Assembly (NCBI GenBank): GCA_016198905.1
Contig: JACQHR010000003.1
Coordinates: forward strand, 1 to 58,096
Origin: Candidatus Omnitrophota bacterium
Lineage (GTDB): Bacteria; Omnitrophota; Gorgyraeia; Aquiviventales; Aquiviventaceae
Direction: 5' to 3'
Length of the DNA: 58,096 bases
Shown: in pieces, positions 5,802 to 48,516 of the stretch
How positions within the stretch are numbered: position 1 is the stretch's first letter
How the letters are laid out: each line of letters starts with the position of its first letter
Notes under the pieces: model-generated
The model's database searches: none
Told to the model about the DNA's origin: nothing
What the model saw: only the letters and a program-made list of their open reading frames with translations
Program-made: the position numbers and the translations under genes

Positions 5802-5973
5802 GGCGGGTGGCAGGGGATGCCAGTGAGCCGGACCTGTGGAAGGGCGAGCGGCCATGGCTCCCACACCCAGTGCGCTGGGTGTGGGGGAGCGAGCCCTGGA
5901 ACCGGAGCGATGGCCCGACACGGTGGGGCGGGCCGAGCGTTCCGGCGAACGGCAACCCCTGACAGGACCCGCC
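5802..5973 (+). other. Highly structured GC-rich intergenic element (candidate ncRNA or repeat) between hisH and hisA
   Basis: Closing helix GGCGGGT..CAGGGG (5802-5816) / CCCCTG..ACCCGCC (5956-5973). Internal perfect hairpin CCACACCCA-GTGCGC-TGGGTGTGG. A second stem GGAGCG..GGCCCG / CGGGCC..GCGTTCC includes a G-U pair. Confidence 0.4.
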
Positions 5974-5994
5974 ACGGGGAAAAAGTGATGAACG

Positions 5995-6838: not shown

Positions 6839-7314
<476 letters not shown>

Positions 7315-11808: not shown

Positions 11809-11882
11809 GGGGCAAGGGGCGAGAGACGGGGGGCGGGCAACGTGCAAGTTCTCCGTGCCCCACGCCCCACGCCCCACGCCCC
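11809..11882. repeat. Heptamer hairpin cassette, GGGGCAA..GAGAC..(CCCCACG)n family
   Basis: GGGGCAAGGGGCGAGAGACGGGGGGCGGG, loop, then GTG(CCCCACG)x3CCCC. Ends 9 nt before the mgtC ATG. Confidence 0.85.
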
Positions 11883-11891
11883 AGCATCCAT

Positions 11892-18426: not shown

Positions 18427-18427
18427 C

Positions 18428-18512
18428 GACACAAGACACAAGACACAAGACACAAGGCGGACGACTGATAGCCGGTCTTGGGTCTTGAGTCTTGAGTCTC
18501 GGGTCTTGAGTC
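18428..18512. repeat. Imperfect heptamer hairpin, (CAAGACA)n / (CTTGAGT)n
   Basis: GACACAAGACACAAGACACAAGACACAAGG ... CTTGGGTCTTGAGTCTTGAGTCTCGGGTCTTGAGTC. Confidence 0.85.
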
Positions 18513-22400: not shown

Positions 22401-22486
22401 GGGGCAGGGGGAGGGAGACAGGGGGCAAGGGTTGATCGGTTAATTCATTTGTTTTCCCACGCCCCACGCCCCACGCCCCACGCCCC
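22401..22486. repeat. Heptamer hairpin cassette, GGGGCAG..GAGAC..(CCCCACG)n family
   Basis: GGGGCAGGGGGAGGGAGACAGGGGGCAAGGG, AT-rich loop, then (CCCACGC)x4. Ends 6 nt before the coaE ATG. Confidence 0.85.
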
Positions 22487-22492
22487 AACGTA

Positions 22493-28003: not shown

Positions 28004-28004
28004 G

Positions 28005-28034
28005 CAGTCAGCACACAGCACTAAGCACACAGCA
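28005..28034 (+). repeat. Single-arm CAGCACA-family array
   Basis: CAGTCAGCACACAGCACTAAGCACACAGCA directly after the murA stop. Resembles the reverse complement of the 6801-6834 arm. Confidence 0.75.
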
Positions 28035-28054
28035 AAAGAGAGAAAGGAGTTTCG

Positions 28055-30660: not shown

Positions 30661-30797
30661 TGAGGTAGTCAAGTTTGGTGGGTGACGCGGAGCCGAGGCC
30701 CCCACAGCCGCCCGCAGAGCCAGCGCGATAGTCGCTGGGCGAGGACGGATGTGGGGTGGCGCAGCGGCAGGCCCTACCAAACTTGACCGTCACCTCA
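30661..30797 (+). repeat. GC-rich long-hairpin element, copy A (conserved core, CGATAGT loop)
   Basis: Closing stems TGAGGT/ACCTCA and GTCAAGTTTGGT/ACCAAACTTGAC. Core GGGTGACGCGGAGCCGAGGCCCCCACAGCCGCCCGCAGAGCCAGCG-CGATAGT-CGCTGGGCGAGGACGGATGTGGGGTGGCGCAGCGGCAGGCCC. Confidence 0.85.
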
Positions 30798-30809
30798 AGT
30801 TCAGCGCGG

Positions 30810-30838
30810 TTGAATCTGTGAAATGCTTCACATATAAT
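30810..30838 (+). promoter_or_regulatory. Near-consensus sigma70 promoter with an embedded Rex-type operator
   Basis: TTGAAT (30810-30815), 17-nt spacer, TATAAT (30833-30838). The spacer contains the perfect palindrome TGTGAA-ATGC-TTCACA (30817-30832). This lies 39 nt upstream of GTG 30877. Confidence 0.7.
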
Positions 30839-30876
30839 AACTTCTTCCATCACCGTAGGTTCCGGCGAGGCAACGA

Positions 30877-31386
30877 GTGCGTATATCAGTCGAGCAGTTT
30901 CTAGAGCAAGTCGCTCAGCGTGGGTCCTGGATGGGCGGAGGGAGTGTCGCCGCTCTCAGCGCTGCGCTGAGCGCGGCTCTCCTTGAAAAGTTGGTGGTGG
31001 ACCCGCGCGCAGTGCGGCGACTGCGCCGCATGTGGCGGGAGTGCCTGGCCCTCATCAATCGCGATGCGACGACTTTTGCGCGCGTGATTCAAGCCACGCG
31101 CACGAAGAATCGAGCCACGTTCCGGCGCTCGTTGAAGCTGGCGATTGACGTTCCGCGCCGCGTTTTTGAGCACGCCTGCACGGTGCAGATGGCGTGCCGC
31201 GCAGCCGAACGGGCCGTGAAGCCGTCACTCCATTCCGATTTGCGCTGCGCGCGCGCGTTGGCCCACGCGGCGAGCGAGTCAGCGCGCGCATTGATCGAAA
31301 CCAACCTGCGGTGGCTCGGTGATCCGGCGTACGCGGCACGCATTCGACGCCAACTTACCGCAGCCAGGCACGCAGATGCTCGCTAA
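30877..31386 (+). CDS. Cyclodeaminase/cyclohydrolase family protein (FTCD_C-like, probable methenyl-THF cyclohydrolase)
   Basis: ISVEQFLEQVAQRGSWMGGGSVAALSAALSAALLEKLV matches the FTCD C-terminal-domain N-motif. GTG start with GAGG 8 nt upstream. Confidence 0.7.
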   Translation: MRISVEQFLEQVAQRGSWMGGGSVAALSAALSAALLEKLVVDPRAVRRLRRMWRECLALINRDATTFARVIQATRTKNRATFRRSLKLAIDVPRRVFEHACTVQMACRAAERAVKPSLHSDLRCARALAHAASESARALIETNLRWLGDPAYAARIRRQLTAARHADAR

Positions 31387-31405
31387 CCCGGAGACCATCT
31401 CTCCC

Positions 31406-32299
31406 ATGTCTGCGCACGTCGTCCTCGATGGCAAAGCCATCGCCGAGCGCATGAAATGCGAGTTGCGCGAAGAGCTCGCACACCTCAAGGGCCATCCGCA
31501 GCTGCGCATCCTCTACTTCGATACGCCCGCCTCCATCGTCTACAAAAATGCGCAGGTGCATGTGGCGCGCGACTTAGGGATTTGGACCGATCGCACCCAG
31601 ACCGATGGCACGTACTGTTTCCCGTGGAAGACGGCCACACAGCACGACGTCGAGCAGCTCATCCAGAAGTGGAACCGCGACCGGTTTGTCCACGGCATCT
31701 TCGTGCACCAACCGGTGCCGCCGCAGATCGATCCGCAGCGCATCTCCGCGCTCATCGATCCGCGAAAAGACGTCGAGGGCATTCACCCGGACAACTCCGC
31801 GCGCCGCTTCTTCGCCAAAGCGCGCATCGGCTCTTGCACGGCGCTGGCCGTGATGCGGCTCATCGAGGAAACCGGCGTGCCGCTCGAGGGCAAGGAAGCG
31901 GTGGTGGTGGGGCACAGCGAGATCGTGGGTCGGCCGGTGAGCATGCTGCTGCTGGACAAATTGGCGACGACGACCGTCTGCCATCTCGGCACCGACAAGG
32001 CCGGCCGGCTGGAAGAGCACGTGCGCCGGGCTGATGTGCTGGTCGTGGCGGTTGGGCGACCGCATCTCATCAAAGGGTCGTGGATCAAACCGGGAGCCAT
32101 CGTCATCGACGTCGGCATCAACGTCGTTCATGGACATGTCGTCGGGGACGTCGAGTTCGACACGGCCAAGGCCCGCGCGGCGTTTATTTCTCCGGTGCCG
32201 GGCGGGGTCGGGCCTGTCACGGTCATGACGGTCATGAGGAACACGGTGGAAGCCTTCAAGGGACAACAAGCCGAATCATCAGGCAAGCGCGATGGCTGA
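31406..32299 (+). CDS. folD: Bifunctional methylene-THF dehydrogenase / methenyl-THF cyclohydrolase
   Basis: VLDGKAIAERMK, VVGHSEIVGRPVSMLL, PVPGGVGPVTVM. Confidence 0.92.
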   Translation: MSAHVVLDGKAIAERMKCELREELAHLKGHPQLRILYFDTPASIVYKNAQVHVARDLGIWTDRTQTDGTYCFPWKTATQHDVEQLIQKWNRDRFVHGIFVHQPVPPQIDPQRISALIDPRKDVEGIHPDNSARRFFAKARIGSCTALAVMRLIEETGVPLEGKEAVVVGHSEIVGRPVSMLLLDKLATTTVCHLGTDKAGRLEEHVRRADVLVVAVGRPHLIKGSWIKPGAIVIDVGINVVHGHVVGDVEFDTAKARAAFISPVPGGVGPVTVMTVMRNTVEAFKGQQAESSGKRDG

Positions 32300-33194
32300 T
32301 GCCATAACTACTGCATCGGACGTGGCGCGATTTGAATCACGGCTTGGCAAAAAGTCGTTTCTGGTGACGATGGAGGTCAATCCGCCGAAGGGTACCGATC
32401 TCTCGGAGATTCTCGCGGCGGTGAAGCGCGTCGCAGGACTCGTGGATGCGATCAACGTAACCGACGGCTCCGGGGCGATCATGCGCGCGTGCTCGCTGGC
32501 GGTCGCGAAAATAGTGCTGGACGCCGGTCTTGATCCGATCCTGCAGATGACATGCCGCGATCGCAACCGGCTGGCCTTGCAAGCCGATCTGCTGGGAGCC
32601 TCGATCCTCGGCATTCGCAACGTGCTCTTGCTCACCGGCGATGATCCCAAGGCGGGCGACCATCCGGATGCCAAGCCGGTCTTCGACATCAACTCCGCGG
32701 CACTCATGCAAGTCGCCAAGGGGTTGACGCAGGGCAAGGACATGGCCGGCAAGGAACTCTCCGGAGCGCCGCAGTTATGCATCGGGGCGGCGGCCGATCC
32801 GGGCGCGAAGGATCTTGAAGTGGAGATGCAGAAGTTCAAGGCGAAGATCGATGCGGGCGTGAGCTTCTTTCAAACGCAAGCGGTTTTTGATGCGCAACGG
32901 CTGCGCGCGTTCATGGAACGCGCCAAAATGTTCAGCAAACCGGTGCTGGCCGGCATCTTGTTGGTGAAGTCCGCGAAGATGGCGCGCTACATGAATGAGC
33001 ATGTGTGGGGCATCCACGTGCCGGAGGACATGATTGCGCGATTTGAACGCGCCTCGGATAAGCGGGCGGAATGCGTGGCCGTGACCGCCGAGTTGATTCA
33101 GGCCGTGCGTGACGTGGCCAATGGCATCCATCTGTATGCGTTGGGATGGGAAGAGCTGGTGCCGGCCATCTTGAAAAAAGCGGGTGTCGCGTAA
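32292..33194 (+). CDS. metF: Methylenetetrahydrofolate reductase
   Basis: FLVTMEVNPPKG, INVTDGSGA, LQMTCRDRNR, LLLTGDDP. Confidence 0.85.
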   Translation: MADAITTASDVARFESRLGKKSFLVTMEVNPPKGTDLSEILAAVKRVAGLVDAINVTDGSGAIMRACSLAVAKIVLDAGLDPILQMTCRDRNRLALQADLLGASILGIRNVLLLTGDDPKAGDHPDAKPVFDINSAALMQVAKGLTQGKDMAGKELSGAPQLCIGAAADPGAKDLEVEMQKFKAKIDAGVSFFQTQAVFDAQRLRAFMERAKMFSKPVLAGILLVKSAKMARYMNEHVWGIHVPEDMIARFERASDKRAECVAVTAELIQAVRDVANGIHLYALGWEELVPAILKKAGVA

Positions 33195-33195
33195 G

Positions 33196-34335
33196 ATGCT
33201 CAAGACCGCACTCCATGACCGGCATCGGGCGCTTGGGGCCAAGATGACCGATTTTCACAGCTGGGACATGCCGTTGTACTACACGAGCATTCTGGAAGAG
33301 CATCGGGCGGTGCGGGAAGCCTTGGGGGTCTTCGACATCTCCCACATGGGTCAGGTGCTGGTGGCGGGTCCGGATGCGGTCCGCACGCTCAACGCGCTGA
33401 TGGTCAGCGACATCAGCCAAGTCGCCCAGGGGCGCGCCTGTTATACCCTGATGTTGAACGAGCAGGGCGGCATCATTGACGACCTCATCATCTATCGGCT
33501 TGGCGAGTCGGAGTTTCTCGTCATCGTGAATTGCGGCAATCGTGCCGTCGATGTGGCATGGCTCGCGGGCCACGTGGAGGGGCAGACGACGGTCACCGAC
33601 ATCAGTGAGGGCCGGTCGATCCTTGCGGTGCAGGGGCCGCGCTCCTCGCGCGTGTTGGAAGAGATTCTCGATGCGAAAGTGGCCGGGCTGGGAAAGTTCT
33701 GCATCGCTCCGATTCGCACGATGGGGCCTGATGCCTGCCTGGCGCGCACCGGCTATACCGGCAGTGATGGATTCGAGCTGTTCCTGCCGGACCGGCATGC
33801 GCTGCGCGTGTGGGATGCGGTGCTGAGCATGGCCAAGCCGTTGGGCGCGCGACCGGTGGGATTGGGCGCTCGCGACACGCTGCGCATCGAAGCCGGGTTG
33901 CGGCTCTACGGCACGGACATGGATGCGGCGACGAGCCCGATCGAAGTCGGGTTAGAGTGGACCGTGGCCATGAATAAGCCGGCCTTTATCGGCAAAAACG
34001 TGCTCGTCACACAGCAGCAAGACGGGGTCGCGCGAAAGTTCATTGGGTTTGAGCTCTCGCAAGGGCCGGTGCCGCGAACCGGTATGGAGTTGGCGGTCGA
34101 TGGCCGGCGCATCGGAATGGTGACAAGCGGCACCTTCAGTCCCATCTTGGCCAAGCCGTTAGGTATGGGGTACGTGGAGCCTGCGTACACGAAGCCGGGG
34201 ACGACCTTAACGCTGACCGTTCGCAATCAGCGCCATCACGCGACCGTCGTGAAGCTGCCATTTTGGAAAGGCGACGCGAAGACGCAAGCCGCCCTGACGT
34301 CTCCGGCGGCTCCAACCAGGGAGCGACTCACGTAA
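33196..34335 (+). CDS. gcvT: Glycine cleavage system aminomethyltransferase T
   Basis: MLKTALHDRHRALGAKMTDFHSWDMPLYY, GVFDISHMG, RTGYTGSDGFEL. Confidence 0.93.
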   Translation: MLKTALHDRHRALGAKMTDFHSWDMPLYYTSILEEHRAVREALGVFDISHMGQVLVAGPDAVRTLNALMVSDISQVAQGRACYTLMLNEQGGIIDDLIIYRLGESEFLVIVNCGNRAVDVAWLAGHVEGQTTVTDISEGRSILAVQGPRSSRVLEEILDAKVAGLGKFCIAPIRTMGPDACLARTGYTGSDGFELFLPDRHALRVWDAVLSMAKPLGARPVGLGARDTLRIEAGLRLYGTDMDAATSPIEVGLEWTVAMNKPAFIGKNVLVTQQQDGVARKFIGFELSQGPVPRTGMELAVDGRRIGMVTSGTFSPILAKPLGMGYVEPAYTKPGTTLTLTVRNQRHHATVVKLPFWKGDAKTQAALTSPAAPTRERLT

Positions 34336-34724
34336 TGCACGTTCCGCCTGAGTTGTTGTACACCAAGACGCACGAATGGGCCAAGCGCGATCCACAAGAG
34401 ATCGTGGTCGGCATTACCGCGCACGCGCAAGAGGAGTTGCGTGACGTGGTGTTTGTGGAGCTGCCGAAAGTCGGCAAGGTCGTCAAGCCAGGCGAACCGG
34501 CGGCGGTGATCGAATCCGTGAAGGCCGCGTTCGACATCTACGCGCCGGTTTCGGGGACGATCAGCCGCGTCAACGACGCCGTCGCAAAAGCCCCGCAGCT
34601 CGTGAATCAGGATTGCTACAGCAAGGGCTGGCTGTTTGCGATCACGCCCAGCGTGCCGGAGGACGTGTCGCGCTTGCTCTCGCCCGACGAATACACGAAG
34701 CAAATTCAAACCGCAACGCACTAA
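34335..34724 (+). CDS. gcvH: Glycine cleavage system H protein
   Basis: YTKTHEWAK and the lipoyl-lysine motif VIESVKAA. TAATG overlap with gcvT. Confidence 0.93.
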   Translation: MHVPPELLYTKTHEWAKRDPQEIVVGITAHAQEELRDVVFVELPKVGKVVKPGEPAAVIESVKAAFDIYAPVSGTISRVNDAVAKAPQLVNQDCYSKGWLFAITPSVPEDVSRLLSPDEYTKQIQTATH

Positions 34725-34734
34725 CCGCAAAGGC

Positions 34735-34819
34735 GTTCAATCGTTCATTCGCTCATTGGCTCATTTGCTGAACAGGTCTTCGGAGCCAATGAACCAGTGA
34801 GCCAATGAACCAGTGAGCC
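34735..34819. repeat. Heptamer hairpin cassette, GCTCATT / CCAATGAACCAGTGAG family
   Basis: GTTCAATCGTTCATTCGCTCATTGGCTCATTTGCTGAAC ... (CCAATGAACCAGTGAG)x2 CC. Ends 2 nt before the gcvPA ATG. Confidence 0.8.
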
Positions 34820-34821
34820 CT

Positions 34822-36165
34822 ATGGATTACGCTCCCAATACCGACGATCAGCGGCAGGAGATGCTCCGCGCCATCGGCGTGAGCTCCTTCGAGGAGCTCA
34901 TCAACGCCGTGCCCGTGGAGCTGCACCAGCGCTCGTTGCACGCCCCGCACGGGCTGGCCGAAGCCCAGGTGCTGGAGCTCTGCGGCGCGTTGGCCGCCCG
35001 CAACCAATCGCTGACCGACCTCACCTCGTTTCTTGGCGCCGGGCAGTATCACCATCTGATTCCAACCGTGGTGGATGCGATCGCCTCACGCGGAGAATGG
35101 CTCACGCCGTACACGCCGTATCAAGCCGAAGCCGGCCAAGGCACGCTGCAGGCGATCTATGAGTTTCAGACGATGGTCTGCGAGCTGATGCAGATGGAGG
35201 TGGCCAACGCCTCACTGTACGATGGGGCGTCGAGTACCGCGGAAGCGGTCATCCTCTCGCTGCGCGCGACCGAGCAGCCCCGTGTGCTGCTCTCCGAGGC
35301 GCTGCATCCGCACGCGCGCGAGGTGATCGCGACCTATCTGATCGGCGCCAACGCCATCGTGCAAGAGATTCCGGCGGTCAACGGGGTGACGGATCTGGAG
35401 GCGCTTGGCAAGGCGCTGCGTGACGACGTGGCCTGTGTGGTCATGCAGCAGCCGAACGTCTTCGGCTGCCTTGAGCCGATGGCGCAAGCCGGCGAGCTGG
35501 CGCACAAGGTGGGCGCGTTGTTTGTGAGCTCGGTCTATCCGATCAGCCTGGGACTGCTGCAGCCGCCGGGCGCCTACGGCGCCGACATTGCGGTGGCCGA
35601 AGGCCGATGCCTTGGCACGCCCATCTCCTATGGCGGGCCCGGGCTTGGATTGTTCACAACAACCTCGGCGCTGTTGCGGAAAATTCCGGGACGGCTGGCG
35701 GGCTGCACCGTCGATCACGCGGGTCGGCGCGGGTTTACCCTCACCCTGCAGACGCGCGAGCAGCACATCCGTCGGGAGAAGGCGACCTCGAACATCTGCA
35801 CGAATGAAGGATTGATCGCGTTGCGCGCGACGGTCTTCATGAGCCTGCTCGGTCCTGAGGGGCTCAAAGAGATGGCGACACTGAATCTGGAGAAAGCGCA
35901 CTATGCGCACGAGCGGCTGCGAGACGTCTCGTGGCTGCGGCCGGCCTTCGAGCAATCCTTCTTCAATGAGTTCACGCTTCAGTGCGACGACGCGGTGGAC
36001 ATCGAAGTCGTGAACCGGACGCTCGCCAAAGCCGACATCATCGGCGGCTTTCCGCTGAAATCCTGGTACCCCTCGATGCCGCACGCCTCGTTGTGGTGCG
36101 CGACCGAGGTCCTGTCACAAGACGCCATCGACCGTGCCGTTGACGCGTTGAAGAAGGCCGTGTGA
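34822..36165 (+). CDS. gcvPA: Glycine dehydrogenase (decarboxylating) subunit 1
   Basis: MDYAPNTDDQRQEMLRAIGV, YTPYQAEAGQGTLQAIYEFQT. Confidence 0.93.
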   Translation: MDYAPNTDDQRQEMLRAIGVSSFEELINAVPVELHQRSLHAPHGLAEAQVLELCGALAARNQSLTDLTSFLGAGQYHHLIPTVVDAIASRGEWLTPYTPYQAEAGQGTLQAIYEFQTMVCELMQMEVANASLYDGASSTAEAVILSLRATEQPRVLLSEALHPHAREVIATYLIGANAIVQEIPAVNGVTDLEALGKALRDDVACVVMQQPNVFGCLEPMAQAGELAHKVGALFVSSVYPISLGLLQPPGAYGADIAVAEGRCLGTPISYGGPGLGLFTTTSALLRKIPGRLAGCTVDHAGRRGFTLTLQTREQHIRREKATSNICTNEGLIALRATVFMSLLGPEGLKEMATLNLEKAHYAHERLRDVSWLRPAFEQSFFNEFTLQCDDAVDIEVVNRTLAKADIIGGFPLKSWYPSMPHASLWCATEVLSQDAIDRAVDALKKAV

Positions 36166-37637
36166 TGGCGGACCCGCTGATTTTTGAGCGCTCAGTCCCG
36201 GGACGCCGAGGCTATCGGCTGCCGCCGAGCGATACGCCTTCGCGCCCGCCAGCAGACATGCTGCCGGCGGATCAGCAGCGCGCGACCCCGCCGCAATGGC
36301 CCGAGGTGGCCGAGTTCGACGTCGTGCGCCACTACACGCGGCTCTCGCAGCTGAATTTTTCCGTCGACACGCACTTTTATCCGCTCGGCTCGTGCACGAT
36401 GAAGTATAACCCGAAGGTGAACGAGCGCGTCGCGGCCCTGCCGGGATTTGCCTGGATTCATCCGCTGCAGCCGGCGTCTCAAGTCCAGGGTGTGCTGGAA
36501 TTGCTGCACGGCCTTGAGCAATTGCTTTGTGCGATCACGGGCATGGCGGCATTTACGTTGCAGCCGGCAGCCGGCGCTCAAGGGGAACTCACCGGCCTGA
36601 AGATCGTCGCCGCCTATCACAAGCGCAAACGGCGCACGCGCTCAACCATCCTGATCCCGGACTCGGCGCACGGCACCAACCCGGCCTCGGCCGCCCTCTC
36701 AGGCTTCTCAGTCGTGCAGCTCAAGTCCGGACCGGATGGCCTGATCGATCTGAAGGAGTTCAAGAGCAAATTGAATCGCGACGTGGCGGCTCTCATGCTG
36801 ACCAATCCGAATACGCTGGGCCTGTTCGAATACAACATCAAGACGATTGCGGCCCTCCTGCATGAGCAAGATGCGCTCGTCTACATGGATGGCGCGAACA
36901 TGAACGCGCTGTTGGGTATCTCGCGGCCCGGCGACATGGGGGTCGATCTCTTGCAGTTGAATCTGCACAAGACATTCTCTACACCGCACGGCGGCGGCGG
37001 CCCAGGAGCCGGTCCGGTGGGAGTTGCGAAGGCGCTGGAAGATTTCCTGCCGGTGCCGCGCGTGCGCAAGCGGGGCACACGGTTTGCGTGGGAGACGCGC
37101 AGCCGTGCGACCGTCGGACGTGTCCACGGCTGGTTCGGCAACATCGGTGTGCTCGTGCGCGCCTACGCGTACATCCGTGCGCTTGGGCGGGAAGGGCTCA
37201 TGCGGGCGAGCGAAACCGCGATCATCAATGCCAACTATCTGAAGGCGAAGTTGCAGGAAACGTATCCTGTGCCGTTTCATCAATCGTGCCTGCATGAGTT
37301 TGTGGCCTCGGCCAAGCCGCTCAAGGCGCACGGGGTGACGGCAGGCGATGTCGCCAAGCGGCTGTTGGATTACGGGTTCTACGCGCCGACGGTCTACTTT
37401 CCTCTCATTGTAGAAGAGGCGCTGATGATCGAGCCGACGGAAACCGAATCCAAAGAAACGCTCGATCAGTTCATTGAGGCACTCCTGCGTATTGCGGAAG
37501 AAGCGAAGACGAACCCTGAGCTGGTGCGCCGCGCTCCGCAACGTATGCCGGTGGATCGGCTCGATGAAGTGAAAGCCGCGCGCGAGCCGAACCTGCGCTG
37601 GATGAAACCAGCACAGTCCATCGTCCATAGTCGATAG
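36162..37637 (+). CDS. gcvPB: Glycine dehydrogenase (decarboxylating) subunit 2
   Basis: NLHKTFSTPHGGGGPGAGP (PLP lysine) and GSCTMKYNPK. Confidence 0.93.
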   Translation: MMADPLIFERSVPGRRGYRLPPSDTPSRPPADMLPADQQRATPPQWPEVAEFDVVRHYTRLSQLNFSVDTHFYPLGSCTMKYNPKVNERVAALPGFAWIHPLQPASQVQGVLELLHGLEQLLCAITGMAAFTLQPAAGAQGELTGLKIVAAYHKRKRRTRSTILIPDSAHGTNPASAALSGFSVVQLKSGPDGLIDLKEFKSKLNRDVAALMLTNPNTLGLFEYNIKTIAALLHEQDALVYMDGANMNALLGISRPGDMGVDLLQLNLHKTFSTPHGGGGPGAGPVGVAKALEDFLPVPRVRKRGTRFAWETRSRATVGRVHGWFGNIGVLVRAYAYIRALGREGLMRASETAIINANYLKAKLQETYPVPFHQSCLHEFVASAKPLKAHGVTAGDVAKRLLDYGFYAPTVYFPLIVEEALMIEPTETESKETLDQFIEALLRIAEEAKTNPELVRRAPQRMPVDRLDEVKAAREPNLRWMKPAQSIVHSR

Positions 37638-37661
37638 CCCATCACGTCAGCTACAGGCTGC

Positions 37662-38489
37662 ATGCTGCAGGCTTCAGAGATGAAGAGTGAGTGGCAAATC
37701 ATCGTGGATGGCGCGAACTCAGCCGATGAGCAGATGGCGGCTGATGAACGGCTTGCGCAGCGCGCGCAGCTGACGGCTCGCTTCTTTGAGTGGCAACCTG
37801 CGGCGATCTCGCTCGGATGGAAGCAACCGCGGCCTGAGTGGCTCGAGCCCGACGCGTGGCGTGGCGACAAACTTGAGTGGGTTGAGCGTCCGACGGGCGG
37901 CGGGATCGCGTTTCACGGCAGCGATGTCTCCGTCGCCGTGGTGGTGCTGCGTGCGAAAGGCGTCTCGCTCGCGCTGTTGATGCGGGCGGTGTGTCAAAGC
38001 GCGGTCAGATTGTGCACGAGCTACGGCATCGACGCCTCGGCACTCCTCGAAGCGCCGTCACACGGACGGATCGCGTATTGTCTGACGCAGCACAGCCCCT
38101 ATGCGGTACTCGTGGATGGCCGCAAGGTCGCGGGGTTCGCGCTGCGCCGGTATCCGGCGAGTTGGCTGATTCAAGGATCGCTGCTCATCAATCCGCTTCC
38201 GGAGATCTTACAACGCATGCTACCTGTGTCGGTGGGCGAAGCGATTCAACGGCGCGCCGTCTCACTCTCGGTCGCATCTGGAGCGTCTCTCGACGAAGCT
38301 GATGTCATGCGCCGATGGGCCGCACATTGGACGAGTTGGTGGCCCCACCACCTCCCGACGTCCACCGATGGTGGACGGCCAGTGAAGCAGGAATCAACAA
38401 TGATGCTGGCCAGGCGGCACCCAACATCATACAGAAGTGCTGAGCCAACCATTCTATTGACGTGCCGCCCTCGGGAGGTGGTGGGGTGA
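37662..38489 (+). CDS. BPL/LplA/LipB-family lipoate (octanoyl) protein ligase-like protein
   Basis: FFEWQPAAISLG, ERPTGGGIAFHG, KVAGFALRR, IQGSLLI. The C-terminal ~50 aa are not recognisable. Confidence 0.65.
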   Translation: MLQASEMKSEWQIIVDGANSADEQMAADERLAQRAQLTARFFEWQPAAISLGWKQPRPEWLEPDAWRGDKLEWVERPTGGGIAFHGSDVSVAVVVLRAKGVSLALLMRAVCQSAVRLCTSYGIDASALLEAPSHGRIAYCLTQHSPYAVLVDGRKVAGFALRRYPASWLIQGSLLINPLPEILQRMLPVSVGEAIQRRAVSLSVASGASLDEADVMRRWAAHWTSWWPHHLPTSTDGGRPVKQESTMMLARRHPTSYRSAEPTILLTCRPREVVG

Positions 38490-38671
38490 TGCGGTGTGAT
38501 ACCTGCAAGCAAGAGGGTCCTATGGTGATGCGGGTGATGATCGCGAAAGACTACAACCGCAGTCTGGCCCGGCCCATCTTCAATTGTCCGGAGTGTTTTG
38601 CGCAGAAAGAACGCTCCAAGCAACGCGCGGGTGCTTCGGGATCGGAGACGCCGCAGCCCAACGCGACGTAA
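38489..38671 (+). CDS. Small zinc-ribbon protein (CxxC...CxxC)
   Basis: MRCDTCKQEG...FNCPECFAQKE. Strong SD GGGAGGTGGTGGGG directly upstream. TGATG overlap with the preceding gene. Confidence 0.5.
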   Translation: MRCDTCKQEGPMVMRVMIAKDYNRSLARPIFNCPECFAQKERSKQRAGASGSETPQPNAT

Positions 38672-38681
38672 CCCACGCGGC

Positions 38682-39647
38682 ATGATCTCCACGACGGTCG
38701 GCAGCTATCCCAAGGTGGCCGAAGGCGCCTACACCACGAAGCTCATCGGCGCGGTGACGAAATGGCAGCGCAAAGAACTCGATGACGCGCAATTGGAGGT
38801 AGTCCAGCAAGAGATCACGTGTGCCGTCATACGCGAACAGGAAGACGCCGGCCTCGATCTCCTGACGGATGGGCAGATCCGGTGGGAAGATCTTGTGACG
38901 CCAATCGCCAGACGCCTGCGCGGGTTTGAGATCAACGGCCTCTCGCGATGGTTCGATAACAACGTCTACTACCGGCGGCCGATTCTGCGGACAGCGCCGA
39001 AGCGGACCGGGCCGATCCTCGTCGAGGCCTATACGTTTGCCGCCGCCTGCGCGCGCAAGCCGGTCAAAGCGGTGCTGCCTGGTCCGTATACACTCGCGGT
39101 CATGAGCGAGAACCGGCACTACGCGTCGCTGAAGCCGTTCGTGCTCAAGCTCGCCGAGCTGCTCAACGCCGAGGCGATGGCGCTCGCCCAAGCCGGTGCG
39201 CCGGTCATTCAGTTTGATGAGCCGGCTCTTGGGTTCGGCAAGCCGAATCTCAAGCTGGTGCTGGAAGCGCTCCGTGTGGTCACGAAGGGCGTGAAGGCGA
39301 AGACGGCTCTGTACACGTATTTTGGCTCGCTGGACGGTGCGTTGGCATCCCTGATGCGAGCGACGGTGGACATCATCGGTGTGGACGTCGTGTCTGATCC
39401 CCACGCGCTTCGTGAGTTGAAGCGGACGAAGGTGACGAAGGCGTTGGCGCTCGGCTGCATGGATGCGCGCAACACGAAGCTTGAATCGGTCAGCGAGCTG
39501 CACCGCCTGTTTCGAGCTGTGACAACGCTGGTTTCCGGCGACCGACTCTACGTCAATCCCAACTGCGGGCTCGAGTTCTTGCCGCACACACAGGCGCAGA
39601 AAAAAATCCAACGGTTAGCCGAGGCGGTTCGTACCTTCAAGGCATGA
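38682..39647 (+). CDS. MetE N-terminal-domain-like protein (Meth_synt_1-like, lacks the His-x-Cys zinc motif)
   Basis: GSYPKV, LTDGQIRWEDL, LSRWFDNNVYYRRPIL (compare MTKWFDTNYHY of MetE), YTYFGSL in place of the H-x-C motif, NPNCGLEFL. Confidence 0.7.
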   Translation: MISTTVGSYPKVAEGAYTTKLIGAVTKWQRKELDDAQLEVVQQEITCAVIREQEDAGLDLLTDGQIRWEDLVTPIARRLRGFEINGLSRWFDNNVYYRRPILRTAPKRTGPILVEAYTFAAACARKPVKAVLPGPYTLAVMSENRHYASLKPFVLKLAELLNAEAMALAQAGAPVIQFDEPALGFGKPNLKLVLEALRVVTKGVKAKTALYTYFGSLDGALASLMRATVDIIGVDVVSDPHALRELKRTKVTKALALGCMDARNTKLESVSELHRLFRAVTTLVSGDRLYVNPNCGLEFLPHTQAQKKIQRLAEAVRTFKA

Positions 39648-39648
39648 G

Positions 39649-40668
39649 ATGTTGTTGACGACATCAGTCGGCAGTTTACCCAAACCGGAGTACCTGACGA
39701 CCGCGCGCAGCCAAGCGCGCAAGGGCGACATCAGTCCAAAAGCGCTGCATGCGCTGGAAGAGCAAGCCACGCGCGAATGGATCAGGAAGCAAGAAGAGTT
39801 GGGATTCGATGTGCTCGTCGATGGCGAGCAGTACCGCGGGGACATGGTCGCGTACTTCGCCGAGCATCTCGGCGGATTTCAACAGAGCGAGCTGGTGCGC
39901 GCCTACGGCAATCGCTACTACCGCAAGCCGATCATGGTGGGCAAGGTCACGCGGGCCACACCCATCACGGTCGAGTGGTGGACGTTCGCGCAACGGCTGA
40001 CGACGCGGCCGGTCAAAGGCATGTTGACCGGGCCGTACACGATCATGGACTGGTCGTTCAATGAGCATTATCCCTCGCGGCGCGCCGCCACGCTGGCCAT
40101 CGCGCAGGTGATTCGCGATGAAGCGAGGGATTTGGAGCGAGCCGGGGCGCAGTACATCCAAGTCGATGAGCCGGCGATTTCGACGCGCCCCGAAGAAATG
40201 GACTTGGCGATTGAAGCGCTCGGGATCGTGACGCATGGCCTGAAGGCCAAGACGATCACGCACATCTGCTACGGAGATTTCGCAACGATCGGCCCGAAGC
40301 TGCGCCGTTTGCCGATCGATCAGATCGACTTAGAGTTTGCCAACCGCGATTTCGAGCTGCTCGAAGTCTTCAAGGGCATGCGGTTCCAGAAGGAAATCGG
40401 TTTGGGGGTCGTCGATGTGCACGACCATCGGCTGGAATCAGTCGAGGAAGTGGCGAGCAACATCCGCAAGGCCTTGACGGTGTTTCGGCCCGAGCAGCTC
40501 ATGATCGATCCGGACTGCGGGCTCAAGACGCGCACACCCGAAGAAGCGGTCGAAAAGCTGCGCGTCGTCGTTGAAGCAACGAACGTGGTGCGCGAAGAAC
40601 TCAGTGCCGGGGACTCGAGACCACGCAAGATGACACGCTCGCGGTCGACAGCGCGAACGCGCACCTAG
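39649..40668 (+). CDS. metE: Cobalamin-independent methionine synthase catalytic-domain protein (Meth_synt_2-like)
   Basis: VGSLPKPEYL, VDGEQYRGDMV, HICYGDF and DPDCGLKT zinc-ligand motifs. Confidence 0.78.
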   Translation: MLLTTSVGSLPKPEYLTTARSQARKGDISPKALHALEEQATREWIRKQEELGFDVLVDGEQYRGDMVAYFAEHLGGFQQSELVRAYGNRYYRKPIMVGKVTRATPITVEWWTFAQRLTTRPVKGMLTGPYTIMDWSFNEHYPSRRAATLAIAQVIRDEARDLERAGAQYIQVDEPAISTRPEEMDLAIEALGIVTHGLKAKTITHICYGDFATIGPKLRRLPIDQIDLEFANRDFELLEVFKGMRFQKEIGLGVVDVHDHRLESVEEVASNIRKALTVFRPEQLMIDPDCGLKTRTPEEAVEKLRVVVEATNVVREELSAGDSRPRKMTRSRSTARTRT

Positions 40669-40674
40669 GCTTGC

Positions 40675-41529
40675 ATGATGGCTGGCACGAGTAAGATGAC
40701 GATCGCAGAGCTCCTCAAACGCAAGCGGCAGGCAGGCAAGATCACCATGCTGACTGCGTATGACTATCCTATTGCGAAGTTTGTTGATGCGGCAGGAGTC
40801 GATGTGATCTTAGTCGGCGATTCTTTGGGCATGGTGGTGCTGGGCTACGAGAGCACGACACCGGTGACGATGGAGGAGATGCTCCATCACGCCAAGGCCG
40901 CGCGCCGCGGAGTCTCGCGCGCTCTGCTCGTGGGCGACATGCCGTTTCTCTCCTTTCGTTCCTCGACGGCGGATGCGGTGAAAAACGCCGGACGGTTTGT
41001 GCAAGAAGCCGGCTGCGATGCGGTGAAGGTTGAATGGAAACACGGCATCGAGGACGTCACGAAAGCAATCGTGGACGCCGGCATTCCGGTGATGGGACAT
41101 GTGGGCCTGACCCCGCAAACAGCCGCCGCCGAAGGCGGATTTGGGATGCGCGGCAAAGACGCGGAGTCGGCGGCGCGCATCATCGGGCAGGCGATTGCGC
41201 TGCAGGAAGTCGGCTGTTTTGCCATGGTGCTCGAGTGCATTCCCGATGTGGTCGCCCAGGAAATCACGCAGCGGCTGACGATTCCCACCATTGGGATCGG
41301 CTCAGGCCCGTGGTGCGATGGACAGGTGCTGGTGACGTACGACCTGCTCGGGCTCTACGATCGATTTACGCCGTCGTTCGTCAAGCAGTACGCGACGTTG
41401 GGCACGACCATCCGCGACGCGGTCACCGCCTATGTGCGCGACGTCAAGGCTGGAACGTTTCCCGGCACAGAGCATACGAAAACACTCGCTCCTGACGAGT
41501 TGGCCCGGCTGAAGCAGGAGCTGGGCTGA
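40675..41529 (+). CDS. panB: 3-methyl-2-oxobutanoate hydroxymethyltransferase
   Basis: ITMLTAYDYP, ILVGDSLGMVVLGYEST, VKVEWK, GHVGLTPQ. Confidence 0.93.
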   Translation: MMAGTSKMTIAELLKRKRQAGKITMLTAYDYPIAKFVDAAGVDVILVGDSLGMVVLGYESTTPVTMEEMLHHAKAARRGVSRALLVGDMPFLSFRSSTADAVKNAGRFVQEAGCDAVKVEWKHGIEDVTKAIVDAGIPVMGHVGLTPQTAAAEGGFGMRGKDAESAARIIGQAIALQEVGCFAMVLECIPDVVAQEITQRLTIPTIGIGSGPWCDGQVLVTYDLLGLYDRFTPSFVKQYATLGTTIRDAVTAYVRDVKAGTFPGTEHTKTLAPDELARLKQELG

Positions 41530-41537
41530 TCGGTCGC

Positions 41538-42200
41538 ATGATCATGACACGTTCTTACTATCCGATCTTTGCCGATTTGACCGGACGCCGATGCGTGGTG
41601 ATCGGCGGCGGGCCGGTTGCGCAGCGAAAGGTCACCACGTTACTCGGCTACGGAGCACAAGTGATCGTCGTCAGCCCGACGGTCACGCCGCAGCTGAGCG
41701 CGTTGGCGCGACGCGGCCGCATCACGTATCGCACGCGGAGGTTTCGTCCGGCGGATCTTGCGGGCGCATGGCTCGTCTACGCGGCAACCGGGGATGAGCG
41801 CGTCAATCGCCGCGTGGAGCAGGCGGCAACGCGCGCGTGTGTGTTCGCCAACATTGTCGATCAGACCGCGCGGTGCACGTTCATCGCGCCCTCGATCTTC
41901 CGGCGCGGGCAGGTGACGATCGCGGTCAGCACGGGCGGGGTGAGTCCCTCGCTGTCCAAGCACGTACGGCGGGATCTGGCGCGCACCATCGGGGCGGAGT
42001 ACGCGCGCATGCTGCAGTTGCTTGGCCGTCTGCGCGGCGCGGCAAAGCAGCGGTTGCCCGATTACCAGGATCGCGGACGATATTTTGATGAGTTGATGAC
42101 CGGGCAGACGTTTCGACTGATTCGAGCAGGCAAGACGCAGCACGCGCGGCAGGTGGCCACACAGCTTCTGATGCAGTACGCTCGGCGGGTGAGGCGATGA
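41538..42200 (+). CDS. sirC: Precorrin-2 dehydrogenase / sirohydrochlorin ferrochelatase (SirC / CysG N-domain type)
   Basis: YPIFADLTGRRCVVIGGGPVAQRKVTTLLGYGAQVIVVSP. Confidence 0.85.
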   Translation: MIMTRSYYPIFADLTGRRCVVIGGGPVAQRKVTTLLGYGAQVIVVSPTVTPQLSALARRGRITYRTRRFRPADLAGAWLVYAATGDERVNRRVEQAATRACVFANIVDQTARCTFIAPSIFRRGQVTIAVSTGGVSPSLSKHVRRDLARTIGAEYARMLQLLGRLRGAAKQRLPDYQDRGRYFDELMTGQTFRLIRAGKTQHARQVATQLLMQYARRVRR

Positions 42201-42260
42201 TTCTGACGATGGCGTTGTGGGCGTCGTTGCTCTGTCGGACACTCCTTCCGAGAGCGCCCG

Positions 42261-42368
42261 AGGCCACGGGGCCTGCCCCGGCGCCACCCTGCGCCGTCCT
42301 CGCCCAGCGACTATCGCGCTGGCTCTGCGGGCGGCACAGGGGACCTGTCGCCGGGTCACCCGTGGCCT
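42261..42368 (-). repeat. GC-rich long-hairpin element, copy C (inverted orientation)
   Basis: Closing stem AGGCCACGGG / CCCGTGGCCT. The reverse complement reads GGGTGACCCGGCGACAGGTCCCCTGTGCCGCCCGCAGAGCCAGCG-CGATAGT-CGCTGGGCGAGGACGGCGCAGGGTGGCGCCGGGGCAGGCCCC. Confidence 0.85.
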
Positions 42369-42420
42369 ACGAGCGAGCGTTTCGGCGGAGCAGAGCGTCG
42401 TATTGTGTTGGGAGCTAGGC

Positions 42421-43332
42421 ATGCGTTCCGTTGTGATTGGCACGCGTGGGAGTTCACTCGCGATGTGTCAGGCCCACTTCGTCCAGGCACAACTAGAGGA
42501 GCGCTTCCCCTATCGATCCTTTGAGCTGAAGACGATCAAGGCCGAGGCGGACAAGAATCCAGAATTGTCGCTGGCGCGGATGGGCGGAGAGGGCGTCTTC
42601 GTCAAAGAGCTTGAAGCGGCACTTCTTAACGGCGACATCGATTGCGCGGTGCATAGCCTGAAGGATTTGCCGCTCGATGCGCCGCCAGCCTTGCGGATCG
42701 CCGCGGTCCTCGCGCGCGAAGAGCCGCGCGACGCGCTGGTGGCTCGCGCCGGCCAGCCCCTTGCCGCGTTGCCATCGAGCTCGCGCATCGGGACCTCGAG
42801 CCTGCGGCGCAAGAGCCAGCTGCTGCGGCAGCGGCAGGACCTCCAGATTCTCGAGATGCGCGGCAATGTGGATACGCGTCTGCGAAAACTCGACGAAGGA
42901 CGCTACGACGCAATTGTGCTGGCCGCCTGCGGGTTGATTCGACTGGGGCTTGAGAAGCGCGTGACCGAATATTTGAGCCTCAAGCAGATGGTGCCTGAGC
43001 CCGGGCAAGGAGCGCTGGCGATCGAAGCGCGTGCGCATGATCAAGACATGGCGCAGATGCTTAGCGAGCTCAACGATGCGCTGAGCCGTGCGTGTGTTGA
43101 GGCCGAGCGCGCATTCTTGCGAGCGCTGGGTGGCGGCTGTCGCGTGCCGATCGCCGCGTATGCGTTGTGTGCGGATGGCATCATCACGCTGGATGGGACG
43201 GTGGTGGCTGCCGATGGCTCGCAGCAACTGCGCGACCGCGCGACCGGTCCCATCGCGGACCCCATCGCTCTCGGCGAGCGCCTCGCTGAGGAATTAACTT
43301 CTCAGGGTGCTAGGAAGTTGCTCATGAAATGA
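42421..43332 (+). CDS. hemC: Hydroxymethylbilane synthase (porphobilinogen deaminase)
   Basis: VVIGTRGSSLAMCQA, GNVDTRLRKL, LGGGCRVPIAAY. The ORF-track start at 42217 reads through repeat copy C and is rejected. Confidence 0.92.
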   Translation: MRSVVIGTRGSSLAMCQAHFVQAQLEERFPYRSFELKTIKAEADKNPELSLARMGGEGVFVKELEAALLNGDIDCAVHSLKDLPLDAPPALRIAAVLAREEPRDALVARAGQPLAALPSSSRIGTSSLRRKSQLLRQRQDLQILEMRGNVDTRLRKLDEGRYDAIVLAACGLIRLGLEKRVTEYLSLKQMVPEPGQGALAIEARAHDQDMAQMLSELNDALSRACVEAERAFLRALGGGCRVPIAAYALCADGIITLDGTVVAADGSQQLRDRATGPIADPIALGERLAEELTSQGARKLLMK

Positions 43333-43356
43333 AAATCAATTCATGAAAGACCGCCC

Positions 43357-43704
43357 ATGATTGTTCTGCTGCTAGTGTTAGTGGCCATATGCGTATTAGT
43401 GTCATTTCCTGCATGGAAATTCCAACGAAAAAGAGTGACGTGGTATCCGTGGGACTACGGCGTACCGACCTATGGAATTGCTGTATGGATGGTGCTCACC
43501 GCATCAGGCATCGGAGCTCAGAGTCTGTCCAATTTTGTTGAGTTGCTCGGCGTGTCTATAGCGGCGTGCGTTGCTCCTTGGCTGAGAGTCGCTTTTCCGG
43601 GAGGAGACCAAAAGTCCTCGTTGTTATCATCCGCAGGCTCTTTACTATTGCCCGTCATTACAGCGGCGCTGCTCCGATTATGTATGCCCTTGCTACCAGA
43701 GTAA
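43357..43704 (+). CDS. Hypothetical small multi-pass membrane protein in a lower-GC segment
   Basis: 115-aa ORF with 3-4 hydrophobic segments. No family recognised. Its composition is visibly less GC-rich than the flanks. Confidence 0.45.
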   Translation: MIVLLLVLVAICVLVSFPAWKFQRKRVTWYPWDYGVPTYGIAVWMVLTASGIGAQSLSNFVELLGVSIAACVAPWLRVAFPGGDQKSSLLSSAGSLLLPVITAALLRLCMPLLPE

Positions 43705-43982
43705 TTCATACTGAGTGCGATGGGAGTATCTCTTAAGTGGGGAGGGGAGACAAGGGAAGAGGCAGCTAGATGGAACAAGAAGATAAGCTACCGGCTGCCG
43801 ACGACCAGCCGTACCGGGTTCCGAAGGGACACGTTGCAAGCGCACGCGGATCATCAACGAGGTCAATATGCGCGAGTACAGACTGCGAGACTTTGGAAAC
43901 TAGCCCGTACGCAGTAAGGCTCTCATTGTTCGTGGAGGAAAAGGGATCAGGGAGGCTCATCGGATGAGACGAGGCCGACCGA

Positions 43983-44010
43983 TAAGGGGAAAACCTGGGT
44001 TTTCCCCTTA
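43983..44010. other. Perfect 12-bp stem-loop
   Basis: TAAGGGGAAAAC-CTGG-GTTTTCCCCTTA. No U-tract on either strand. Confidence 0.5.
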
Positions 44011-44042
44011 TGGAGCGGCCACAGTTTCGCGATAGCCGCGAC

Positions 44043-44116
44043 GCGCCCGTAGCTCAATTGGATAGAGCGCTAGCCTCCGGAGCTAGAGGTTGTGGGTTCG
44101 ATCCCCGCCGGGCGCG
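44043..44116 (+). tRNA. tRNA-Arg (anticodon CCG)
   Basis: Hand-folded cloverleaf: acceptor GCGCCCG/CGGGCGC, D arm GCTC..GAGC, anticodon stem CTAGC/GCTAG with loop CTCCGGA, T arm GTGGG-TTCGATC-CCCGC. No encoded CCA. Confidence 0.88.
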
Positions 44117-44171
44117 CGTTATTTCTCACGAGCAGAGTCCTGGGCTCGAAGGGAGCCGCAACTTTCTTATA

Positions 44172-44417
44172 ATGGAAAACGAGAGCGTTTCGCCAAAGTC
44201 ACGATTAGGTGTCCTGCTCTTCTGTCTTTTCCTGTGGCCGTTCGGGGCACACCGTTTCTACGTGGGCAAGATCGGTACAGGCATTCTGACAATTCTCACC
44301 GTTGGTGGATTCTGCGGCGTGTGGCCGCTCATCGATCTGATTCTGATTATTATCGGAGCGTTTCGGGATAAGGAAGGCCGCAGAGTCCTGAAGTGGTTTG
44401 AACCGGCTTCCCCGTAG
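44172..44417 (+). CDS. TM2-domain membrane protein
   Basis: LLFCLFLWPFGAHRFYVGKIGTGILTILTVGGF..WPLIDLILII. Confidence 0.75.
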   Translation: MENESVSPKSRLGVLLFCLFLWPFGAHRFYVGKIGTGILTILTVGGFCGVWPLIDLILIIIGAFRDKEGRRVLKWFEPASP

Positions 44418-44433
44418 GAATTGTCAATATTGG

Positions 44434-44549
44434 TGATGTTCGTGGGTGACGCGGCGCCAGGGCCCCTACTCGCCCGGAGCCGACGACGGCGATAGTCCGG
44501 CGCGGCGAGGACGAGTGGGGTGGCGCCGCGGCAGGACCCACGAACATCA
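44434..44549 (+). repeat. GC-rich long-hairpin element, copy B
   Basis: Closing stem GATGTTCGTGGGT / ACCCACGAACATC. Core GACGCGGCGCCAGGGCCCCTACTCGCCCGGAGCCGACGACGG-CGATAGT-CCGGCGCGGCGAGGACGAGTGGGGTGGCGCCGCGGCAGG. Internal 9-bp helix GCGGCGCCA / TGGCGCCGC. Confidence 0.85.
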
Positions 44550-44567
44550 TCCATCAATCGATTATGA

Positions 44568-46097: not shown

Positions 46098-47157
<1,060 letters not shown>

Positions 47158-47161
<4 letters not shown>

Positions 47162-48516
47162 AGGTTGTGAGAGCTGCTCGCCGGCAACGAGTGCCTTTCG
47201 TTTCACGTTTCACGTCTCGCGTTTCACGTCGCAACGTGAAACCTGAAACCCGAAACGTGAAACGAGGCGGAGGTAGTGATAGTGCGCAATGCTTAGTCGG
47301 CGGCGTCAACAGCCCAGTGCGCGCGTTTCGGCATGTGGGCGGTGATCCGCTGATGGCGGCGCGAGCGCGCGGCGTCTCGCTCGTGGATACGCAGGGACGA
47401 ACGTATCGCGACTTCATCATGGGCTGGGGTGCGTTGATACTGGGGCACAATCCTCCCGCGGTGATGCGCGCGATTCGTCAGGCCGCCGCGCGAAGCACCG
47501 TCTTAGGTCTAACGCATCCGGCAGAGGTCGAGCTCGCCCGGCTCATCGTCGAAGCGGTGCCGTCGGTGGAGCAGGTGCGGTTCACCGTCTCAGGCACCGA
47601 GGCCTGCATGACGGCGGTGCGCCTGGCGCGCGCCCACACGGGCCGGACGCGCGTGCTCACCTGTGAGGGCTCCTACCACGGGCATGGCGATACGCTGATG
47701 GCGGGCAAGACCGCGGGCATTCCCGTGGACTACGCGCGTCATCTCATCACGGTGCCCTTCAATGATCGCGGCGCATTCGAAGAGGCGATCGCGCGCCACC
47801 ACGAGACGCTCGCGTGTGTCATCGTGGAGCCGGTGGCGGCCAATACCGGCGTCATTCCTCCCATAGCCGGATGGCTGCGGCGACTGCGAGCGCTGACATC
47901 GCAGCATAGGATCGTCCTTATCTTTGATGAGGTCGTGACCGGGTTTCGGTTGGCGCGCGGCGGCGCGCAAGAAGCCTTCGGCATTACGCCGGATCTGACA
48001 ACGTTCGGCAAGATCATCGGCGGCGGATTGCCCATCGGCGCGCTTGGAGGGCCTCGGCGCCTGATGCGGCGGCTCGCCCCTGAAGGCGATGTGTATCACG
48101 GCGGCACATTCGCCGGCCATCCGCTGAGCATGGCCGCCGGTGTGGCTACCTTGCGAGCGCTGCAGGCGCATCCGCCGTATGCGCGCCTTTCGTCGCTGAC
48201 GCAGGAGCTCGTTGACGGACTACGCGCAGTCGCCGGCAAGGTTGGTGTTGCCATCCACATCAATGTGACGGGGTCGATGTTCACGGTCTTCTTCACGCAG
48301 GCGCCAGTCCGCAACGCGGCCGATGTGAGCGCCAGCCGCCGGGATCAGTTCGCGGTCTGGTCGCGCGCGCTGCGAGCGCAGGGCATTCTCATTCCTCCAT
48401 CGCCTTATGAGGCGATGTTTCTCTCGACCGCTCATCGACAAGCAGATGCGGACGCCTTCGTGCGAGCCGCGCGTGCCGCGTTTGCCGCGGTGGCCGACGG
48501 CGTGCGTGGAGCGTAA
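47158..48516 (+). CDS. hemL: Glutamate-1-semialdehyde 2,1-aminomutase
   Basis: GGVNSPVRAF, GWGALILGH, FGKIIGGGLPIGA. Start uncertain: ATG 47158 (ATGA overlap with hemB, reads through the hairpin) or in-frame GTG 47236 / 47257 inside the GTGAAAC arm. Confidence 0.88.
47199..47264. repeat. Heptamer hairpin cassette, GTTTCAC / GTGAAAC family
   Basis: CGTTTCACGTTTCACGTCTCGCGTTTCACG-TCGCAA-CGTGAAACCTGAAACCCGAAACGTGAAACG. Confidence 0.88.

Follow-up and report, generated by a model that had tools for sequence, protein, structure and literature searches.

A probable family of miniature inverted-repeat transposable elements with a conserved hairpin core and modular ends in Candidatus Omnitrophota

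A stretch of 58,096 nucleotides from a Candidatus Omnitrophota bacterium (GenBank assembly GCA_016198905.1, contig JACQHR010000003.1, positions 1 to 58,096), hereafter the window, carries three copies, A, B and C, of a GC-rich hairpin repeat. These copies very probably belong to a new family of MITEs (miniature inverted-repeat transposable elements) of the ordinary kind with an unusually well conserved hairpin core, and the best-supported grouping for them is a new MITE family, or superfamily, whose ends are modular. This assignment draws on the copy number, inverted repeats, duplications, identical copies elsewhere, intergenic sites and the lack of strand bias. The family was previously unannotated and is common in a poorly known uncultured lineage of groundwater. 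It breaks assemblies, sits within operons of housekeeping genes, such as those for heme, histidine and folate, and is found at points of rearrangement, for instance at copy C, and the covariance model built here allows such contigs to be annotated and binned.

Copies in the window and in metagenomes

Copies A, B and C share a core of about 96 nt (GGGTGAC...GGCAGGnCCC), located at 30680-30775 (+) in A, 44444-44539 (+) in B and 42268-42361 (-) in C. Three occurrences of the motif GGCGAGGACG-N(2-10)-GGGTGGCGC were counted in the window and none in 100 dinucleotide shuffles, which bears out the three places given in an earlier note made from the letters of the window alone. Its description of each copy as one long imperfect hairpin also held: as RNA, A, B and C each folded into a single such structure (-76 to -81 kcal/mol, z -5.6 to -8.5). 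Their reverse strands folded almost equally well, and DNA folding gave z of -7 to -8. Perfect inverted repeats of 12, 10 and 7 bp lie immediately outside the cores of A, B and C, and a covariance-model search of the window returned these three copies as its only matches to the family.

Copy A is an element of the class-1 type defined below, 131 bp long (30664..30794, +; covariance-model score 119.3 bits), and consists of the left arm GGTAGTCAAGTTTGGT, the core with a short CGATAGT apex and the right arm ACCAAACTTGACCGTCACC; three more paired bases lengthen its hairpin to 30661-30797. Its arm is the class-1 consensus (GTCAAGTTTGGT) and matches class-1 copies in the metagenome loci L158, L149, L169, L146 and L127. 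Copy B is a shortened class-1 element of 121 bp (44432..44552, +; 127.6 bits) with the arms GGTGATGTTCGT and ACGAACATCATCC, ends that fit GGnnnTG and a core with a long CGATAGT apex; the proximal part is missing from both of its arms. Copy C is a complete class-2 element of 165 bp (42228..42392, -; 97.1 bits). Its terminal inverted repeats, TGCTCCGCCGAAAC (at 42392, read on the minus strand) and TGCTCTGTCGGACA (42228-42241), also flank more than 20 copies in metagenome loci, and it is enclosed by a 9-bp target-site duplication, GGGCGTCGT on the left (42219..42227) and GAGCGTCGT on the right (42393..42401), the two copies agreeing at 8 of 9 positions.

All three are intergenic: A lies between yraN and an fchA-like gene, B between a tRNA gene and cobA-hemD, and C between sirC and hemC. 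A promoter-like TTGAAT-17-TATAAT stands 12 nt downstream of copy A and is kept in a relative, whose homology begins there. The cobA-hemD genes start 15 nt past the end of copy B, and hemC 28 nt past the end of copy C. None of the three copies has a terminator-like T tail; one terminator-like site at the edge of C is within chance expectation, and no such site was found at A or B. The elements (121-165 bp) are of MITE size (under about 300 bp) and non-coding; indels make the length of the core vary from 91 to 100 nt, a variation that a conserved reading frame would not allow.

Metagenome contigs were scanned with a stricter 28-nt motif, which yielded 51 further loci from at least 12 datasets, mostly groundwater. 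A covariance model (R1) was built from 42 distinct copies (alignment A2) and, together with nhmmer, located some 57 copies over 285 kb of locus sequence, so that the proposal of a repeated family stood. Contig ends cut 8 of the 57 matches, and locus L176 begins within an element; cut copies of this kind fit a repeat, since repeats typically break assemblies. Furthermore, the metagenome-assembled genome (MAG) GCA_016180575.1 of the National Center for Biotechnology Information (NCBI) has one class-1 copy (72.5 bits), which differs in its apex and lies upstream of an fchA-like gene.

It should be added that three motifs of the search pattern, including the CGATAGT loop, are invariant in the 51 loci by construction. 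Among seven copies found without pattern selection, CGATAGT was present in only one, the apex being one of at least four alternatives, and the loop is therefore not the family constant it had been taken for. The lower two-thirds of the hairpin were conserved in the same seven copies (GGGTGACGCGGAGCCGGGGCCCCC..CCGCCCGCA ... GAGGACGG..GGGGTGGCGCAGCGGCAGGACCC). As a separate observation, a small hairpin module (CCCTCGACTCGGCTTCGC...) recurs in L143 (763-943), L120 (5230-5420) and L165 (about 263); it sits at two different places within cores and once elsewhere, which suggests nested small repeats.

Outside these loci, a looser 19-nt motif gave at least 119 single matches in genome contigs, from high-GC genomes, and nhmmer upheld none among the matches listed; this loose-motif scan does not establish the absence of the family from isolate genomes. 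A scan of viral contigs gave no matches, and neither did a distant BLAST search of plasmids. A literature search on these end sequences and on MITEs in Omnitrophica found nothing relevant.

Terminal arms, duplications and genomic sites

When 70 nt on either side of every copy were compared, the flanks sorted into recurrent classes with at least three arm types. Class-1 arms, 16-19 nt long, read GGTRRTG(N)TC(N)A(N)TTTGGC before the core and GCCAAA...CAYYACC after it, abridged as GGTRRTG..GTCAAGTTTGGC; they vary among copies by several substitutions and indels, and both arms of one copy share the same variant. At the predicted class-1 junctions 7-8 matches of 8 were found in 7 of 12 copies, with a calculated chance per copy of about 4e-4; examples of the 8-bp duplications are GCGGGTGC (L158), GCGCCAGG (L167) and CAGGGGGG (L127). 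Class 2, with more than 20 copies including C, has 14-nt terminal inverted repeats (TGCTCTGTCGAAAA ... TTTTCGACAGAGCA) at both ends and variable spacers between these and the closing stem (GGCCAC, GGCAGC or GCTTCGC). Class-3 arms are of the CCATCCCAACACC type.

The duplications of class 2 were assessed as the unbiased best 9-mer common to left and right flanks, with mismatched flanks as control. Of the 41 copies, 12 had perfect 9/9 direct repeats that abut the class-2 repeats exactly on both sides; among the 300 controls there were 5 such cases. Moreover, the class-2 elements of L151 and L170 are identical at 161 of 161 positions and lie at unrelated sites with different duplications. The family accordingly combines terminal inverted repeats, duplications of fixed length and dispersed copies, identical ones among them, as MITEs do.

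These results reverse one argument of the earlier note. It had taken the closing stems as unrelated between copies, which is true among A, B and C only; family-wide, the stem of A is the class-1 and that of C the class-2 consensus. Its conclusion that such variable stems speak against a MITE fails, because each closing stem is the inner portion of a terminal arm specific to its subfamily, and inverted repeats and duplications are present just outside it.

The nearest named relatives of the window proteins are MAGs labelled Candidatus Omnitrophica or Omnitrophota, GCA_016180575.1 among them, at about 70% identity, and the closest relative, Logan SRR22388044, to which loci L171 and L176 belong, has about 88% nucleotide identity. 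The gene order in L171 is sirC-ccsA-hemA-hemC. The window is without ccsA and hemA at this place, and no hemA was found anywhere in its 58 kb; copy C occupies the ccsA-hemA gap (42201-42420 versus L171 2195-3661), after a ccsA remnant of about 10 codons. Locus L176 starts inside an element upstream of cobA-hemD, of which only the last 26 nt or so (CCTGGCAGGACCC + GCCAAACCTGAACG) are common with copy B. L155, a more distant orthologue of window 36.5-40.6 kb, carries a core whose arms are unique, placed precisely at the sirC/ccsA junction. In sum, all three occupied intergenic regions of the window are also occupied in some relative, with a different subtype, position or orientation, and unoccupied in others (L171, L172); this re-use suggests insertion hot spots or retention. 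The sirC/ccsA and hemC/cobA junctions are unoccupied in L171 and L172, the regions being rearranged or too divergent for a base-exact empty site. For the differing flanks of L144 and L152 the best reading is a chimeric assembly, or else recombination at the repeat, and such mosaics were not used as evidence.

Two further differences were seen at or near these junctions. Between hemC and the tRNA gene the window has about 640 bp (43333-43975), against 77 bp in L171; this stretch is an insertion in the lineage of the window, and it contains an open reading frame (ORF) of 115 amino acids (43357-43704) with no family match. In L177 (positions 1-160), a relative of window 30800-31400, the place that yraN and copy A take in the window is occupied by an AT-rich end, upstream of the fchA-like promoter, which is conserved. 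This end contains direct repeats (GTCTACTTTTAA..CGTAA) and an ORF in divergent orientation that begins MAQLHKRFTDEQ. To judge from these features, the L177 end looks like that of another mobile element at the same junction.

The elements would be short non-coding DNA transposons mobilised in trans by DDE-type transposases encoded elsewhere, which would cut with an 8- or 9-bp stagger. Three layers may be distinguished, namely terminal arms serving as inverted repeats, an imperfect, GC-rich palindrome that is conserved (GGGTGACGCGGAGCCGGGGCCCCC ... GAGGACGG..GGGGTGGCGCAGCGGCAGGACCC) and a variable apex. Arm complementarity within a copy might be kept by intrastrand templating (quasipalindrome correction), by selection on the hairpin or by both. 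Transcription within an operon would produce a very stable stem-loop, which could alter mRNA processing or downstream translation.

Several observations weigh against a MITE family of the ordinary kind. Neither the window nor about 340 kb of loci yielded an autonomous element or a transposase with matching ends. No target-site duplication is recognisable at the ends of copy A, and that of copy B is a 5-nt remnant at most (a possible decayed TCAAT at 44424-28 and 44554-58). The locus comparison yielded no clean orthologous pair of filled and empty sites, an all-against-all comparison showed no empty sites, and the mosaics L152, L153 and L129 may be chimeras of metagenome assembly. Conservation is higher at the interior base of the hairpin than at the ends, which reverses the usual MITE pattern. 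Finally, a MITE family as such does not account for one core within three end types and two lengths of duplication; nested insertion with co-mobilisation, recombination via the shared core or capture of a useful hairpin are possible routes to it.

Among known systems, the Correia (NEMIS) elements of Neisseria, which duplicate TA, and the enterobacterial ERIC/RU-1 elements come closest to MITEs of this size: they are 100-170 bp long and non-coding, have repeats and duplications, occur in many dispersed intergenic copies, often within operons, and form a long imperfect hairpin over the whole element when transcribed. For the enterobacterial comparison the 127-bp ERIC/RU-1 elements were used (PMC3184786, PMC2759123). 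No sequence similarity to these MITEs was found; in contrast to them, the present family is very GC-rich and has at least three termini and 8/9-bp duplications on one core.

As for the ends, IS1 has GGnnnTG termini and 8-9-bp repeats according to ISfinder (PMC10425158, Table 8), and IS6/IS26 has GGnnnTG ends and 8 bp (PMC6807381). The class-1 termini (GGTAGTG, GGTGGTG, GGTAATG and GGTGATG), with their 8-bp duplications, fit both, and may point, as a lead and not as proof, to mobilisation of the IS1 or IS6/IS26 type. The signature is not diagnostic of IS1, since IS6/IS26 share the motif; moreover, no IS1- or IS6-type transposase was found bounded by class-1 ends, and a motif of seven bases carries little weight. 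The class-2 ends (TGCTCTGTCGAAAA, with 9-bp duplications) match neither group.

Covariation and alternative explanations

Covariation was analysed on the 42 distinct copies of alignment A2 with the RNAalifold structure, using shuffled alignments and slid registers as controls. Paired cells made up 96.7%, against 85.7% after shuffling, and cells changed on both sides numbered 147, against 50 shuffled and 7-30 in slid registers, with double changes seen in 12 pairs. Pairing so far above the controls is real and maintained, and the covarying helices proposed earlier were in this respect confirmed. Compensatory change is no demonstration of an RNA function, and it does not tell apart selection for a hairpin, of RNA or DNA, and templated correction between the arms: the same variant in both arms of a copy and the matching truncation of copy B form the pattern expected from templating, and hairpin selection would give it too. 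With one hairpin, three end types and arms paired within yet differing between copies, the family offers a tractable case for setting structure selection against templated correction.

Quasipalindrome correction by intrastrand template switching (the Ripley model) is a mutational process and not an element family. It would explain the perfect arms within copies that differ between copies, together with the matching truncation of B, but not the uncorrected lower-stem bulges of most copies.

Could the hairpin core, and not the transposon around it, be the unit that persists? We consider it unlikely that a core has survived in at least three unrelated transposon shells with its base helix rebuilt from flanking DNA, either through intrastrand templating or through an insertion chemistry producing an inverted duplicate of the flank, as the sirC junction of L155 hints. 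To our knowledge, no description exists, among bacterial MITEs, of a palindrome that extends itself or seeks out hairpins.

In the stronger version, the core of about 96 nt is itself mobile and enters existing palindromes or copies its flank inverted, the arms and duplications belonging to the shells. The same core in three unrelated arm types speaks for it, as do the unique closing stems in L155, L147, L148, L141, L145 and L123, and the nested hairpin modules in the apex loops of L128:6564-6735 and L143, the former lying within a host palindrome. In L155 (5581-5704, reverse complement) the sirC frame reads through the core, which has unique 11-nt arms at the sirC stop/ccsA start. The conserved ARR of the SirC C-terminus is encoded in the downstream arm, and three additional residues come from the upstream arm; removal of the core and 9 nt of the upstream arm gives a SirC C-terminus ending in QSARRQYS before the stop, as long as QYARRVRR before the stop in the window and L171, which suggests that the upstream arm consists of host codons copied in inverted orientation. 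This argument, however, is one locus with an assumed ancestral sequence, and assembly chimeras at a repeat can yield false unique flanks. No direct repeat occurs at the core boundary, and every class-1, -2 and -3 arm in about 340 kb adjoins a core (as do the arms of 4 of 4 elements not picked by the search pattern), which leaves no empty shells. A mobile core is accordingly decidedly unlikely, and insertion into pre-existing hairpins, one of the two explanations offered in the earlier note, is disfavoured, surviving as a minority reading through L155 and the host-palindrome flank of L128:6564-6735.

The other explanation offered there, a structured RNA family (small RNA or cis-regulatory hairpin) selected for its closing helix, with dispersal as a secondary effect, is very unlikely on the present evidence. 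It would account for the compensatory changes described above and for the lower-stem bulge and internal-loop bases (GAC, GAGGAC, GCAGG), which are conserved even in pattern-unselected copies. On the given strand G.U outnumbers A.C by 32 to 6 cells, but this strand comparison is not symmetric: the opposite strand finds its own G.U-using fold (65 versus 22), and the top strand is more stable by only 1.7 kcal/mol on average, in 27 of 42 copies. Relative to flanking genes, called with a crude GC3-based gene finder, 15 elements were co-oriented and 16 anti-oriented, and the neighbours are varied and largely housekeeping genes. This random orientation and the 8- and 9-bp duplications disfavour a dedicated RNA gene or cis-element, and the terminal inverted repeats, the identical copies at unrelated sites and the replaceable apex, CGATAGT included, also stand against it. 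In Rfam the gathering-level matches in the window were two tRNAs only, and no family matched the elements at gathering level or at E up to 10, in agreement with the expectation that no described RNA family would be found. A cis-RNA element or intrinsic terminator was rejected on the lack of both a fixed orientation and a T-rich tail.

Transposition of the HUH type makes no target-site duplications. This bears on repeats of the REP/REPIN type, moved as single-stranded hairpins by RAYT, an HUH tyrosine transposase, with which the family shares high-copy GC-rich intergenic palindromes, a doublet-hairpin look (PMC3116915) and class-1 arms beginning G-GTAG and ending CTAC-C, which recall the REP GTAG tag (PMC3733652; see also PMC2817692). 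An origin of this kind is nevertheless highly improbable for elements that are flanked by 8- and 9-bp duplications and form one larger, continuous imperfect hairpin of 120-165 bp, not two 20-40-bp REPs with a spacer; classes 2 and 3 are without the GTAG tag, and no RAYT gene was seen beside any copy, in a search that was neither systematic nor exhaustive. Integron attC sites were rejected, the GTTTGGC/GCCAAAC arms being in the wrong order for R''/R' and without integrase context.

Element D and further repeats of the window

Apart from A, B and C, the window contains a related element of a second type, D, in the hisH-hisA spacer (5802..5973, +; fold -110 kcal/mol, z -5.2). It shares with the family the frame GC-GGGTG(G)C ... 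(A)CAGGACCC-GC, closed by GGC/GCC, and has a branched interior of about 150 nt unlike that of A, B and C; the type-I covariance model gives no match to it. The element upstream of cobA-hemD in L176 is 81-96% identical to D: its interior matches window 5829-5974, and its end is a class-1-like arm.

The regions 271-375 and, possibly, 170-240 had been named as divergent relatives of the family, and were rejected as such (covariance model 12.7 bits, E 1.4; nothing by BLAST). Region 271-375 is a long hairpin in its own right, whose outer stem of 16 bp is perfect (GCTGGGCCGAGGTGCG / CGCACCTCGGCCCAGC), and it is not repeated in the metagenome loci; it lies upstream of an ORF of 912 amino acids, presumably alaS, as the earlier note named it. 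Lone TGCTCTGTCGAAA-like matches (window 21914, 30422 and 39877, and also in the loci) lie inside coding sequence and were dismissed as chance.

Heptanucleotide tandem arrays are spread across the window, with the units (GTCTCCG)n, (AAGACTC/AAGACAC)n, (AGCACAC)n, (GCCCCAC)n and (CGTTTCA)n. They were located at 5542-5592, 6712-6762, 7232-7303, 11383-11497, 11857-11883, 17912-17990, 18422-18507, 22461-22487, 28003-28053, 46537-46593 and 47198-47265. Many are inverted and hairpin-forming, as at 17918-17951 and 17955-17988, which are 97% complementary, and the arrays recall the STRR-type heptamer repeats of cyanobacteria.

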